A stretch of 64,000 nt of DNA, from positions 1,135 to 65,134 of the forward strand of contig PBCY01000018.1 in NCBI GenBank assembly GCA_002717245.1, read 5' to 3'. The notes below the pieces were generated by a model. It was not told where the DNA came from. It did not search any database and was given only the letters and a program-made list of their open reading frames with translations. Position numbers and translations under genes: made by a program. Source of the DNA: Pelagibacteraceae bacterium. Its GTDB lineage: Bacteria > Pseudomonadota > Alphaproteobacteria > GCA-002720895. Positions 8,624 to 19,902 of the stretch are shown here, piece by piece. Within the stretch, counting starts at the first letter, position 1. Each line of letters opens with the position of its first letter.

Positions 8624-8661
8624 TGTTCATTATATGAACATTATTGTTCATAATATGAATA
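8624..8661. promoter_or_regulatory. Candidate operator: two tandem inverted repeats, TGTTCAT-N3-ATGAACA then TGTTCAT-N3-ATGAATA
   Basis: Read directly at 8624-8640 (perfect 7+7 palindrome) and 8645-8661 (one mismatch). The centres are 21 bp apart, and the array ends 10 nt before the ATG of the winged-helix regulator. Confidence 0.4.
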
Positions 8662-8670
8662 CATGTAATT

Positions 8671-9279
8671 ATGAAAGTTTTTCCTAATCTTAAATCAACC
8701 ACAGATAAAAAGAATATTTTAAAAATTTTAACAGATATTCAGAGTGGGGTTAATTCTTCTCAAAGAAATATTTCTTTCAAATTAGGTATTTCCGCAGGTT
8801 TGGCTAACTCTTATATAAAAAGATGTGTGTCGAAAGGTTGGGTTAAAATTAGGTCGGTTCCTAAGAAAAGATATATTTATTATTTAACTCCTAAAGGTTT
8901 TATAGAAAAAAGTAAATTAACTGCTGAATATCTTAGCTCTTCTTTTTCATTGTATAGAAATATGAGAAACGAATGTAATCAAATTCTTTCTAATTGTAAG
9001 AAAAAAGGAATAAAGAAAATATATTTATATGGGCAAAGTGAACTAGCAGAAGTGCTAATTTTAACTGCCAAAGAGCTTAATATTAATTTTGGCGGAATAT
9101 ATATTTCGGCTACTAATAAAAAAGAATTTTTTGGATTAGAAATTTGTAATTATTTACCGGTAAAAAAAATAGATAAAATAATTTTATGTGATATGAAAAA
9201 TTCTTTTAAATCATTAGATTTTTTAAAAAGAAATTTAGATAAAGAAAAAATAATTATACCAAAAATATTAAATATTTAG
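8671..9279 (+). CDS. Winged-helix (MarR-like, EPS-locus type) transcriptional regulator with a C-terminal Rossmann-like domain
   Basis: The N-terminal segment SQRNISFKLGISAGLANSYIKRCVSKGWVKIRSVPKKRYIYYLTPKGFIEKSKLT has an HTH-plus-wing pattern. It is the first gene of the long + strand array. Confidence 0.55.
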   Translation: MKVFPNLKSTTDKKNILKILTDIQSGVNSSQRNISFKLGISAGLANSYIKRCVSKGWVKIRSVPKKRYIYYLTPKGFIEKSKLTAEYLSSSFSLYRNMRNECNQILSNCKKKGIKKIYLYGQSELAEVLILTAKELNINFGGIYISATNKKEFFGLEICNYLPVKKIDKIILCDMKNSFKSLDFLKRNLDKEKIIIPKILNI

Positions 9280-9292
9280 AGAGGGGGATCAA

Positions 9293-9793
9293 ATGCTTAA
9301 TTGGTATGTTGTAAAAACAAAACGCTTAAAGGAAGATTTTGCTAAGATTAATTTAATTAATCAAAATTTTAAAGTTTATTCTCCAATTATAAAAACAATT
9401 AAAAAGATGGGCGATAAAATAATTCATTTAAAAAAACCATTATTTCCTGGATATTTATTTGTTCAATTTGATTTGAATAACAGCAATTGGTCAAAAATTA
9501 ATAATACATTGGGTGTCACATCTTTACTTTCTATATCTAACACTCTATCATCAGTTAATCTTTCTGATATAGACAGCTTGAAAGCAGCTGAAGATGAAAA
9601 TAACTTTATTATAATATCAAAGATACAAAAACCGATTATGGGAAGGTTGTATCAGATTTTAGAAGGTCCTTTCAAAGGAAAACAAGCTAAATTTAAAAAG
9701 AAAATAGATAGTAAAAATGTTTTTTTAATTGTGAGTTTGTTAGGTAGGGAAATAAATTTAAATTTACCTTATAATAGTATTGAGCCTGTATAG
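9293..9793 (+). CDS. NusG-family specialised paralogue (RfaH-like transcription antiterminator)
   Basis: The NGN-domain pattern is NWYVVKTKRLKEDFAKINL...KPLFPGYLFVQF...W..INNTLGV. A KOW-like segment YQILEGPFKGKQAKF follows. At 166 aa it is RfaH-sized. A strong GAGGGGGA ribosome-binding site lies upstream. Confidence 0.8.
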   Translation: MLNWYVVKTKRLKEDFAKINLINQNFKVYSPIIKTIKKMGDKIIHLKKPLFPGYLFVQFDLNNSNWSKINNTLGVTSLLSISNTLSSVNLSDIDSLKAAEDENNFIIISKIQKPIMGRLYQILEGPFKGKQAKFKKKIDSKNVFLIVSLLGREINLNLPYNSIEPV

Positions 9794-9840
9794 AAAATTA
9801 GAAGTATTTTTTTTCTCTATTCCTTCTTTCGGGTTAGAGT

Positions 9841-9848
9841 GCGGTAGC
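9841..9848 (+). promoter_or_regulatory. ops-like element GCGGTAGC in the leader of the glycan super-operon
   Basis: The sequence tGCGGTAGCtatg compares with the E. coli ops consensus GGCGGTAGnnTG. This GC-rich 8-mer sits in a very AT-rich 56-nt gap between the RfaH-like gene and the first biosynthetic gene. Confidence 0.35.
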
Positions 9849-9849
9849 T

Positions 9850-10887
9850 ATGAAGGAAAAACTTATGAAATTTAATTTTTACAATTCAAATTTAAATTTA
9901 AATAATAAGTCAATTTTAGTAACTGGTGGTACTGGATCTTTTGGGAAAGCATTTACAAAAAAAATTCTTAATTTATATAAACCAAAAAGATTAATTATTT
10001 TTTCAAGGGACGAACATAAACAAAATGAAATGGCTAATGAACTAAAGAAATATTCTAATATTTTACGTTTCTTTATTGGAGATGTAAGAGACAGAGAAAG
10101 ATTGATAATGGCTACAAAAGGAGTAGATTTTATAATTCATGCCGCCGCTTTAAAACACGTTCCTTCAACTGAATATAATCCATTTGAATGTATAAGAACA
10201 AATATATTTGGAGCAGAAAATATTATCCATGCAGCTATCAATTCAAATGTAAAGAAAACAATTGCTTTATCTACTGATAAAGCAGCAAATCCAATTAATA
10301 TATATGGAGCTAGCAAATTAGCAGCTGATAAAATTTTTATTTCAGGAAATCATTTAGCAGCAAATGTAAAATCTAGGTTTTCTGTTGTTAGGTATGGAAA
10401 TGTAATTGGATCTAGGGGAAGTATTTATTGGATTATTAAAAATGTAATTGAAAAAAAATTAAAGAAAGTGCCAATAACTGATAAAAGAATGACTAGATTT
10501 TGGATAACTTTAGATCAAGGAGTAGAATTTGTTTTATCTTCGTTAGATTTAATGAGTGGGGGAGAAATTTATGTTCCTAAAATTCCAAGCATGAAAATTA
10601 CTGATTTTATAAATTCATTTTGTTCTGACAAAAAATTAGAGGAAATAGGTATTAGACCAGGTGAAAAACTACACGAAACAATGATAACAAAAGAAGATTC
10701 CAGATATACTTATGATTGTAAAGATAGATATGTTATAGAGCCAAATATTCATCAATGGGATAGCGAAAGATTAAAAAAAAATAAAATAAAAGGTAATAAG
10801 GTTCAAGAAAATTTTGAATATACTAGCAATTTAAATAAAACATGGTTAACAAGAAAAGATCTTTTATCTTTAGAGAAATTTTTTTAA
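9850..10887 (+). CDS. pseB: UDP-N-acetylglucosamine 4,6-dehydratase (inverting), PseB/FlaA1 type (CapD-like short form)
   Basis: Motifs ILVTGGTGSFGKAF, DVRD, YGASKLAADK. PseG- and PseI-like genes lie downstream. The true start may be ATG 9865, which is preceded by AAGGA. Confidence 0.75.
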   Translation: MKEKLMKFNFYNSNLNLNNKSILVTGGTGSFGKAFTKKILNLYKPKRLIIFSRDEHKQNEMANELKKYSNILRFFIGDVRDRERLIMATKGVDFIIHAAALKHVPSTEYNPFECIRTNIFGAENIIHAAINSNVKKTIALSTDKAANPINIYGASKLAADKIFISGNHLAANVKSRFSVVRYGNVIGSRGSIYWIIKNVIEKKLKKVPITDKRMTRFWITLDQGVEFVLSSLDLMSGGEIYVPKIPSMKITDFINSFCSDKKLEEIGIRPGEKLHETMITKEDSRYTYDCKDRYVIEPNIHQWDSERLKKNKIKGNKVQENFEYTSNLNKTWLTRKDLLSLEKFF

Positions 10888-18665: not shown

Positions 18666-19902
18666 GAAAAAACTAAATACTATTTTAATTAATTCTAAGG
18701 TTAAAAATATAATAAAAGCTCATGACACCCCTTTTTTTATTTTTTTTCCTAATATCATGAAAAAGAAAATTGATGATTTAAAAGCATCTTTAAAAAAAAA
18801 TTATTCAAATTCACAAATTACTTACTCTGTAAAAACTAATTATTTACCATTTGTAGTAAAAAAAGCTTATAGTTTTGGAGCTTATCCTGAATGCATCTCT
18901 GGATTTGAGATTCTTATTGTAAAAAAATTAAACTTATTAAATAAAGACGTTGTTATAAATGGGCCATTAAAATCAGAAGAAGATTTAATAAAACTTTCTA
19001 AATTAGGATGCAGAATTAATATCGATAATTTTACTGAATTAGAAATTGTACAGAAAGTTGCAATGAAATTAAATTTAATTTTAGAAATAGGAATAAGAAT
19101 TTACACGAAGTTAGGAAAAAAAACGTGGTCTAGATTTGGCTTTAATTTAGATAATCAAGAAGCAACTAAGGTTGCAAAAATAGTAAAAAAGAAAATGCCA
19201 AATTTAAAGATTGTTGGTCTTCATATGCATATAGGAACAAATATTTTAGATACAAAAATTTATAAAAATGCTTCATCGGCAGTATCAAAGTTTGCATATT
19301 TTTTAGGGAAAAATGATTTAATCGATTTAAAATATTTAGATTTAGGTGGTGGTTTTGCAACAAATTTGCCATTCAAAGATTACAAAAAAAAAATATGGAA
19401 TGTTCCTACAACAAATCAGTATATAAAAGCTATTTCAAATCCAATAAAAAAGATTTTTAAGAATAAGTTGCCAAAATTAATTTTAGAACCAGGTAGATTT
19501 TTAGTAGATGAAAGTTTCTTTTTAGTAACAAAAGTAAAAAGATTAAGAGGCAAAACTTTAGATTCTGTGATATTAGATGCAGGTGTTAATATTTTACCAT
19601 CTGGAAAATATAGAAAACATAATTTTTTTAAAATTAATAATAAAAATAAAAAAATTAAGAAATATAATTTGTATGGACCATTGTGTATGCAATCTGATTG
19701 TTTTAGAAATAATATAAAATTAAATGAATTAAATAAAGATGATGTGTTATACACTTCTTATGCGGGAGCATATAGTTTCTCTCAGTCATGGAATTTTATA
19801 CAATTTTCGCCTCCTGTACTAGCATTTGAAAAGAAAAAATTTATTTTAATTAAAAGAAAACAAAATTTAAAAGATTTACTATCTAGAGATATTAATGAAT
19901 AA
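18658..19902 (+). CDS. PLP-dependent decarboxylase, Orn/DAP/Arg decarboxylase family (fold type III)
   Basis: Motifs YSVKTNYLPFV (PLP lysine region), GLHMHIGT, LDLGGGF, EPGRFLV, YGPLCMQSD. Confidence 0.85.
   Translation: MNEKKLNTILINSKVKNIIKAHDTPFFIFFPNIMKKKIDDLKASLKKNYSNSQITYSVKTNYLPFVVKKAYSFGAYPECISGFEILIVKKLNLLNKDVVINGPLKSEEDLIKLSKLGCRINIDNFTELEIVQKVAMKLNLILEIGIRIYTKLGKKTWSRFGFNLDNQEATKVAKIVKKKMPNLKIVGLHMHIGTNILDTKIYKNASSAVSKFAYFLGKNDLIDLKYLDLGGGFATNLPFKDYKKKIWNVPTTNQYIKAISNPIKKIFKNKLPKLILEPGRFLVDESFFLVTKVKRLRGKTLDSVILDAGVNILPSGKYRKHNFFKINNKNKKIKKYNLYGPLCMQSDCFRNNIKLNELNKDDVLYTSYAGAYSFSQSWNFIQFSPPVLAFEKKKFILIKRKQNLKDLLSRDINE

Follow-up and report, generated by a model that had tools for sequence, protein, structure and literature searches.

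We analysed a 64,000-nucleotide (nt) stretch of a Pelagibacteraceae bacterium genome, referred to here as the window, in which a 43-kb glycan array is headed by a gene for an RfaH-like NusG paralogue and an ops-like box. The elements follow one another in the order TGTTCA-N5-TGAACA operator (probable), winged helix-turn-helix (wHTH) gene, RfaH-like gene, hairpin with ops-like box, and an array on one strand. The RfaH-like gene (9293-9793, + strand) starts at ATG 9293, and its stop codon ends at 9793. It encodes a specialised NusG paralogue of 166 amino acids (aa), made up of an NGN domain plus a predicted beta-barrel KOW domain, and is followed by a 56-nt gap. Within this gap, a predicted nascent-RNA hairpin, CUCUA.UCC(7 nt)GGG.UAGAG (9815-9839, + strand), stands directly 5' of the ops-like box TGCGGTAGCTATG (9840-9852, + strand). 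An initial annotation had read the locus as an RfaH-like antiterminator with an ops-like box, and this reading is supported by the conservation of the box and the uniqueness of its full form. The box is only half of the signal, as a covarying RNA hairpin precedes it; we refer to the two together as hairpin-ops.

The ops-like box

The box consists of the core GCGGTAGC at 9841-9848 and a pause-type TG at 9851-9852. The 12-nt consensus of ops is GGCGGTAGnnTG, in which the central bases C3-G8 serve factor binding and T11-G12 serve pausing. In the window, tGCGGTAGCt occupies 9840-9849, and its GCGGTAGC is identical to ops positions 2-9, while G1 is replaced by T and the TG falls at positions 12-13 rather than 11-12. 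The earlier count of a 7 of 8 match to the ops core is correct (TGCGGTAG versus GGCGGTAG), as is the position of the core. In E. coli, substitutions within C3-G8 of ops impair RfaH recruitment 3-fold (C3G, T6A) or abolish it (G4C, G5A, A7T, G8C) (PMC5995543), and GCGGTAGC holds all six of the bases on which this recruitment depends.

The 12-mer TGCGGTAGCTAT occurs once in the 1.14-Mb, 25.7% GC assembly, and all matches with one or two mismatches lie inside long open reading frames (ORFs). From base composition, about 0.03 exact 12-mers are expected per genome and about 3e-5 copies of GCGGTAGC per 56-nt gap. A GC-rich word arising by chance is ruled out by this expectation and by the uniqueness of the 12-mer. 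The initial annotation had considered an 8-mer of this kind very unlikely by chance and had named frequent occurrence elsewhere as grounds for giving up the idea. For the full box TGCGGTAGCTAT the argument stands, since the genome-wide count finds it nowhere else; for the bare 7-mer GCGGTAG it does not, as this word has 26 copies in the genome, almost all in coding sequence, and 5 copies in the 64-kb window versus 0.33 expected from shuffles. The 7-mer alone is weak evidence, and it is conservation that carries the case. The four further copies in the window lie inside genes, at 1095 (-), 17293 (+), 26996 (-) and 49550 (+). Two of them are on the sense strand of the array, and none is accompanied by C9, TG or a hairpin.

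Conservation of the box among relatives

The order to which the window belongs is represented by 11 species genomes only, and five other genomes of the same family carry the paralogue, with 31-46% identity to the window protein. In all five, TGCGGTAGCTAT is present 42-47 nt after the paralogue stop. The gene after the box is pseB in two of these genomes and another gene in three, including one for an ABC transporter. A wider scan with one genome per species gave 80 further loci, from Rhodospirillales, Hyphomicrobiales (Bradyrhizobium), Holosporales, a 'Pelagibacterales' metagenome-assembled genome, Coxiellaceae, Legionella and others. With the same-family loci included, GCGGTAG follows the stop codon exactly and on the sense strand in 46 loci, at a distance of 42-90 nt in 44 and of about 200 nt in 2. 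The box consensus across loci is TCACCCGGAcTGCGGTAGCnTG. The exact ops spacing, GCGGTAGC-N-TG (GCGGTAGCNTG), is found in 28 of the 46 loci, in high-GC relatives, and the AT-rich lineages have one more base before the TG. Furthermore, a covariance-model search recovered variant boxes in five more loci, with GCGGCAGC in Holosporales-like loci and another variant in L101 (L and G numbers are our handles for loci and genomes).

Conservation in orthologous leaders, which the initial annotation had proposed to test, was borne out both in the same-family genomes and in about 50 of the 80 further alpha- and gammaproteobacterial loci. Its suggestion that a dedicated antiterminator would be notable in a streamlined genome fared less well: the arrangement is not a peculiarity of this genome and belongs to a widespread cassette that includes a wHTH regulator and an operator. 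Two loci have a second copy of the element downstream of the first, one 240 nt on with the variant box GTGCTGTAGCCTG (L083:3772-3823) and one 1.9 kb on (L034:5422).

A covarying RNA hairpin precedes the box

A stem-loop can be formed directly 5' of the box in every locus, and its sequence differs between lineages. The stem arms are CTCTA/TAGAG in the window, and CTAGG/CCTAG, CAGTAGC/GCTACTG, ACAATAGTTA/TAACTATTGT and GTCYGGGTGA/TCACCCGGAC elsewhere. MAFFT placed the 5' arms of the hairpin out of register, with end gaps instead of loop gaps. We instead used a shift-optimised pair count with shuffles and a covariance model, R1, built from six in-register sequences. Counted in this way, the helices have a mean of 8.5 pairs versus 6.35 ± 0.18 with the 5' part shuffled, a value 12 standard deviations above the shuffles. 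The covariation alignment comprised 33 matches (32 distinct). Here, the covariation score was 0.229 versus 0.105, none of 500 shuffles scored as high, and controls with slid partners reached at most 0.125. In the model-based alignment, both sides have changed in a compensatory manner in 6 of the 11 pairs, and pairing holds in 81% of cells. Model R1 is biased to high GC content: AT-rich copies from the family were missed at E <= 1 and were found by the exact word. A chimera test, in which 3' arms were set against the upstream parts of other loci, was confounded by GC content and was not used as evidence.

Many of the pairs are U-G wobbles and the loop varies between 3 and 12 nt, features that fit a sense-strand RNA structure and not a protein site in duplex DNA. 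In 28 of 42 loci, 10-12 nt separate the last hairpin pair from the T of the TG; in the window, the separation is 12 nt (T9851). A spacing of 10-12 nt is that of type-1 pause hairpins, as in his-type pauses. The geometry of the hairpin, which lies about 10-12 nt upstream of the predicted pause 3' end, is that of a putative type-1 pause.

A run of eight T residues (9807-9814, + strand) lies between the stop codon of the paralogue and the hairpin, and T-runs are found at the equivalent place in L002, L003, L008 and L011. No terminator-like hairpin was detected at the T8 run. An intrinsic terminator is ruled out for the hairpin, which has no U-tract after it, and none was found between the paralogue and the box. 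In high-GC relatives, the paralogue stop is often followed by a GC-rich hairpin, after which T-runs sometimes come (e.g. L064, L088). Such T-run or GC-rich hairpin sites may act as a leaky terminator or as a stabiliser of the regulator transcript.

The paralogue is RfaH-like and predicted to be monomorphic

The paralogue matches the NusG NGN family of Pfam (PF02357) with 67.7 bits over residues 3-94 (cutoff 22.2). Among NCBIfam models, RfaH (TIGR01955) ranks first with 99 bits, ahead of UpxY and LoaP (63 each) and NusG (54). The cutoffs of the UpxY and LoaP models (NF033644, 100; NF033641, 125) are not reached, the paralogue scoring 63.2 bits in both. The Pfam KOW match is sub-threshold (13.8 bits versus a cutoff of 22.3), and the phmmer alignment to E. 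coli RfaH spans residues 1-157. AlphaFold2, run with a 69-sequence alignment, gave a mean predicted local distance difference test score (pLDDT) of 87, and the C-terminal domain is a beta-barrel in the best model. More specifically, this predicted KOW domain consists of five beta-strands within residues 119-165 (pLDDT 80-89). In Foldseek comparisons, the full-length model matches active, polymerase-bound RfaH (8phk_P and 6c6s_D) and also NusG. Autoinhibited RfaH was aligned over the NGN domain only, which superposes on 5ond and 2oug with a root-mean-square deviation of 1.8-1.9 Å. The housekeeping NusG is encoded separately, on another contig (C11:63797-64234).

In E. coli RfaH, F56 is needed for tight polymerase binding and lets the factor outcompete NusG (PMC7593976). 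All 69 family members, the window protein among them, have this residue, and the F56-type hydrophobic patch for RNA polymerase binding is present. Q24 is kept in 68 of 69 members, and T72, G74 and V75 are invariant or nearly so. H20 and R23 are found in the majority (40 and 46 of 69, respectively), while R73 and K10 are poorly kept (19 and 9 of 69). At the ops-contact positions, the window protein has K10, N20, N23, Q24 and L73. At the position of the Rho-binding loop of NusG (I164-F165-G166) it carries L-L-G-R, which is also the family consensus (LLGR), compared with I-F-G-R in NusG and L-I-N-K in RfaH.

Autoinhibition of E. coli RfaH requires E48 (PMC7593976). At this position the window protein has K and the family never has E, and the equivalents of I93 and F130 are kept. 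As the C-terminal domain is predicted to be a beta-barrel and E48 is absent, autoinhibition of the paralogue appears unlikely. The initial annotation had described a 166-aa protein with NGN and KOW domains and the size and layout of RfaH. Its coordinates and domains hold and RfaH is the best family; the protein scores below the equivalog cutoff, and its KOW domain is predicted to be a beta-barrel. It is best called an RfaH-like specialised NusG paralogue of the monomorphic type and not an RfaH equivalog.

Association of the site with the paralogue

A model search of 151 genomes sampled from the class gave hits to the element in 12, two of which (G069 and G126) turned out to be false when inspected. 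The paralogue is present in 9 of the 10 genuine carriers, adjacent to the element in 4 and elsewhere in 5. Among the 50 genomes examined for both, element and paralogue are associated (Fisher p = 0.0025). Genome G058 has two wHTH plus hairpin-ops modules before different operons, with a single paralogue 31 kb and 770 kb away; G025 and G011 are similar. In L113 and L114 (both G058) and L115 (G025), hairpin-ops directly follows the wHTH gene with no paralogue between them. Since one paralogue serves distant sites, site-specific loading is needed.

A second link comes from the box itself. E. coli RfaH accommodates the flipped-out T6 of ops in a pocket made up of H20, R23, Q24 and R73 (PMC5995543). 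Among the related loci, a C at box base 6 goes together with Asp or Glu at residue 23 in 7 of 7 cases (L031, L047, L063, L067, L081, G011, G059), compared with only 2 of 32 loci where base 6 is T. The window has T at base 6 (9845) and Asn at residue 23. The amino group of cytosine could give a hydrogen bond to a carboxylate, and the carbonyl of thymine could receive one from Arg. The covariation of base 6 and residue 23 is suggestive of a link between protein and box, not proof of one.

The probable operator and the wHTH regulator gene

Upstream of the paralogue, a 202-aa MarR_EPS-like wHTH regulator is encoded at 8671-9279 (+ strand). The protein matches Pfam HTH_24 and NCBIfam TIGR04176, the latter with 66 bits and below the cutoff of 88. 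Its C-terminal part of about 120 residues is conserved without a confident family, with a weak match to PF24409 (wHTH-PRTase associated). In almost every related locus, a gene homologous to the wHTH gene stands immediately before the paralogue gene, and the two mostly overlap by 4 nt. In the window, two TGTTCA-N5-TGAACA palindromes (TGTTCATTATATGAACA and TGTTCATAATATGAATA; 8625-8662) lie in the promoter region and are probably the operator of this regulator. About 50 of the 80 related loci (L031-L110) have such a palindrome shortly before the wHTH gene, some 650-800 nt upstream of the paralogue, and it is kept from the 26% GC genome of the window to Alphaproteobacteria of 65-70% GC. In L033, L066, L071, G011 and G043 it stands 15-110 nt upstream of hairpin-ops. 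Because the operator and promoter region lies upstream of the element, hairpin-ops would be part of the transcribed leader.

Proposed mechanism

Taken together, it is likely that these elements form a self-contained elongation-control cassette at the head of the 43-kb glycan array, with the paralogue loaded at hairpin-ops. Given the recurrence of the cassette in Alphaproteobacteria, hairpin-ops is very probably the loading site of the paralogue. With the parts, their conserved order and spacing, the covariation of the hairpin, the co-occurrence of site and paralogue and the presence of Rho established, we infer transcription start, pausing, binding, antitermination and ribosome tethering. Transcription would start from the operator region (8625-8662) and proceed through the wHTH and RfaH-like genes. 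About 50 nt past the paralogue stop, the hairpin (9815-9839) and then the box (9840-9852) would be transcribed, where the geometry suggests that the polymerase pauses. The hairpin, 10-12 nt behind the predicted pause T, would prolong this pause in the type-1 manner. By homology, the non-template GCGGTAGC would form an ops-type DNA hairpin with a C3:G8 pair and a G4-A7 loop, and the NGN domain of the paralogue would read it in the paused complex. If the factor behaves as E. coli RfaH does, it would stay on the polymerase and exclude the housekeeping NusG, which would suppress pausing and Rho-dependent polarity across the array, and the beta-barrel KOW domain may tether the lead ribosome.

Several observations weigh against loading of the paralogue at hairpin-ops. 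The paralogue does not reach the cutoff of the RfaH equivalog (99 bits versus 144.5), and the window protein is without three of the four ops-contacting side chains of E. coli RfaH, having N20, N23 and L73 instead. The TG lies one base further 3' than in E. coli ops. The window hairpin is weak alone (local minimum free energy -7.6 kcal/mol, z = -1.9), and the whole 111-nt intergenic region folds no better than shuffles (z = +0.98). The alignment used for covariation had been fitted to the model, a bias in favour of structure, and the association of residue 23 with base 6 comes from only 2-3 independent lineages. The unexplained T8 run could be a termination or initiation signal. Genome G043, which is 99% complete, has operator palindromes and hairpin-ops (L117, G043:C16:275886-275936) and no paralogue by the family profile. 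Finally, the element is linked no less tightly to the wHTH gene than to the paralogue, and linkage alone cannot tell which protein is the reader.

This last point leads to an improbable alternative, in which the hairpin and box are read by the wHTH protein, as a DNA operator or as an RNA ligand. The likeness to ops would then be a relic or a coincidence, and the paralogue would be recruited otherwise, e.g. co-translationally in cis, which has been put forward for monomorphic RfaH homologues. The wHTH gene does accompany the element without an adjacent paralogue (twice in G058, and in G025), and G043 has the element and no detectable paralogue. The arms of the hairpin form an inverted repeat and could be a dimer site, and a 2026 preprint (PMC13015549) makes the case that RfaH homologues of the beta type, when encoded in cis, work independently of ops. 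However, we reject hairpin-ops as the wHTH operator, as the separate, conserved TGTTCA-N5-TGAACA palindrome already fills this role at the promoter-proximal place expected of it. Loops of 3-12 nt fit RNA, as do the U-G wobbles, which are A-C mismatches on the other strand, and the box is asymmetric and always on the sense strand. Furthermore, the eight-base identity to ops and the covariation of residue 23 with base 6 are hard to account for in this way, and the trans cases require site-specific loading of the paralogue.

A factor-independent RNA signal, such as an attenuator, a pause, or a processing or 5'-stabilising hairpin without any contact to the paralogue, is slightly less probable still. 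It would separate the expression of the regulators from that of the glycan operon. The hairpin is indeed positioned at the boundary of the regulator and biosynthetic genes, the paralogue stop is followed by T-runs in the AT-rich family or by GC-rich hairpins in high-GC relatives, and ops-like sequences are consensus pauses for many polymerases in the absence of a factor (PMC5995543). However, the invariant bases G4-G8 are dispensable for pausing and needed for the binding of E. coli RfaH (PMC5995543), and a bare pause signal would not keep them. The element and the paralogue also co-occur genome by genome, and the element covaries with a pocket residue of the paralogue. As no U-tract follows the hairpin, an intrinsic terminator does not explain it.

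We give next to no credence to the box as a promoter element for the array, e.g. of an alternative sigma factor, with transcription starting at or after it: the box does stand directly before the first biosynthetic gene and overlaps the first ATG in the window and in L003/L004, but the loci differ in the distance between it and the start codon, from 0 to more than 60 nt, there is no -10/-35 arrangement, the covarying, wobble-paired stem indicates transcribed RNA, the palindromic operator region, where adjacent, lies upstream, and in L003/L004 the sole in-frame ATG is inside the box, which therefore is in the mRNA.

Comparison with known systems

RfaH-like genes are common in Alphaproteobacteria, where cluster CL4 is associated with HTH genes, and the mode of recruitment is known for E. 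coli RfaH only (Wang et al. 2020, PMC7593976). E. coli RfaH and its ops (GGCGGTAGCGTG, found in lipopolysaccharide (LPS), capsule, haemolysin and F-tra leaders) are the closest reference. The two factors share size and layout as NusG paralogues, RfaH is the best family match, and F56, Q24, T72, G74 and V75 are kept. The box corresponds to ops 2-9 with all recruitment bases, and its orientation and position fit a non-template-strand site heading a very long, presumed envelope-glycan operon; in some relatives one factor serves several sites in trans, as in E. coli. In contrast, H20, R23 and R73 of RfaH are N20, N23 and L73 in the window protein, which scores below the equivalog cutoff. With E48 absent and a beta-barrel predicted, no fold-switch autoinhibition is expected. 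Furthermore, an RNA hairpin of 8-13 bp precedes the box of the cassette, whereas E. coli ops has been classed as a type-2 pause, lacking a pause hairpin (PMC11685472). In AT-rich lineages the TG is also shifted by 1 nt.

The JUMPstart element of Gammaproteobacteria (Rfam RF01707; Hobbs & Reeves 1994; Weinberg et al. 2010) has a hairpin, 2 nt and then ops (PMC2864571). Both JUMPstart and the cassette element consist of a stem-loop, 1-3 nt and then GCGGUAGC(N)UG, and both stand in the leaders of polysaccharide operons. The cassette differs in its longer stem of different sequence (consensus GUCYGGGUGA...UCACCCGGAC), in its range (Alphaproteobacteria, Coxiellaceae and Legionella-like Gammaproteobacteria) and in its fixed place just after the factor gene. 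As a positive control, RF01707 scores 60 bits on the E. coli rfb leader (CUGGU...GCCAG-GG-GCGGUAGCGUG). Rfam, JUMPstart included, gave no match in the window region 9700-9950 at E <= 10, none in 12 related loci at the gathering score, and none in 6 related loci searched whole at E <= 5.

Bacteroides UpxY is recruited at opsX, a site made up of a DNA hairpin in the non-template strand and an RNA pause hairpin that NusA stabilises (Saba et al. 2024, PMC11685472). Such NusA-stabilised pause hairpins were shown experimentally to aid UpxY recruitment and to prolong pausing (PMC11685472). Like UpxY, the paralogue is dedicated to its locus and encoded within the glycan operon that it would serve, and the cassette site resembles opsX in having a DNA hairpin with a GCG...AGC-type stem plus a nascent-RNA pause hairpin, here predicted. 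Unlike the UpxY system, in which opsX lies upstream of upxY, the cassette has its site downstream of the factor gene, and the place of the partner is taken not by a UpxZ-like inhibitor but by a wHTH regulator with its own operator. Also, the box carries the E. coli-type word and not locus-specific variants as in opsX.

With monomorphic, cis-encoded RfaH homologues (PMC13015549) and CL4 (PMC7593976), the paralogue shares the predicted beta-barrel C-terminus, the HTH neighbour and the position of the gene beside a long LPS or polysaccharide operon. For these homologues, recruitment in cis and free of ops has been proposed and no conserved site described, whereas hairpin-ops is conserved and also occurs at distant operons. 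In the cassette, the E. coli word is combined with a pause hairpin of the Bacteroides type, both right after the factor gene and under a wHTH regulator, and the whole is very probably a lineage variant of the RfaH/ops, JUMPstart and UpxY/opsX systems. We found no description of this arrangement of E. coli word and pause hairpin in the literature searchable to us.

The RfaH/ops word is kept well beyond enteric bacteria, as a portable cassette with regulator, operator and pause hairpin that sits before variable glycan operons. A very AT-rich 1.1-Mb marine genome could in this way transcribe a 43-kb surface-glycan array as one unit despite Rho, with one small factor and a 40-nt loading site standing in for many promoters. 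Hairpin-ops, which no Rfam model finds, could mark the starts of long glycan operons, and exchanging residue 23 and base 6 jointly is predicted to switch specificity. More tentatively, this clade may be intermediate, in evolutionary terms, between NusG and the enteric RfaH that switches its fold, with an open factor that reads a bipartite signal of a NusA-type RNA pause hairpin and the non-template DNA hairpin of GCGGTAGC. If so, a beta-barrel KOW domain and the lack of an E48 lock would keep the factor constitutively open, and it would still be loaded by sequence, following a code of residue 23 and base 6 in which Arg or Asn goes with T, and Asp or Glu with C. Recognition of ops would then predate autoinhibition and trans action, and the ops-free view of cis-encoded monomorphic RfaH homologues would need revision.

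The presumed target array and the start of pseB

The presumed target array (9850-53099, + strand) comprises about 43 co-directional genes over 43 kb on the ORF map. Its genes overlap or are separated by gaps of at most about 106 nt, except at two reported frameshift sites. Between 8671 and 53099, all ORFs of at least 110 aa are on the + strand, with the exception of an antisense shadow ORF at 19416-19754. The + strand of the array has only two weak terminator-like sites, no more than in shuffles, and the genome encodes Rho (682 bits). Matches to the sigma-70 consensus are fewer than in shuffles, a count that is uninformative in DNA so rich in AT.

The first biosynthetic gene is pseB (9850-10887, + strand), which encodes an inverting UDP-GlcNAc 4,6-dehydratase (TIGR03589, 490 bits; cutoff 408). 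Its first in-frame ATG (9850-9852) lies within the box. The alternative start, ATG 9865, was said to be preceded by AAGGA, and this sequence is found at 9853-9857. In L003/L004 (2043-2056), the ATG inside the box (GCTATG) is the sole in-frame ATG start of pseB and has no Shine-Dalgarno sequence. Because the box ATG is the pseB start in these two loci from a sister genus, the predicted pause site would there coincide with the start codon.

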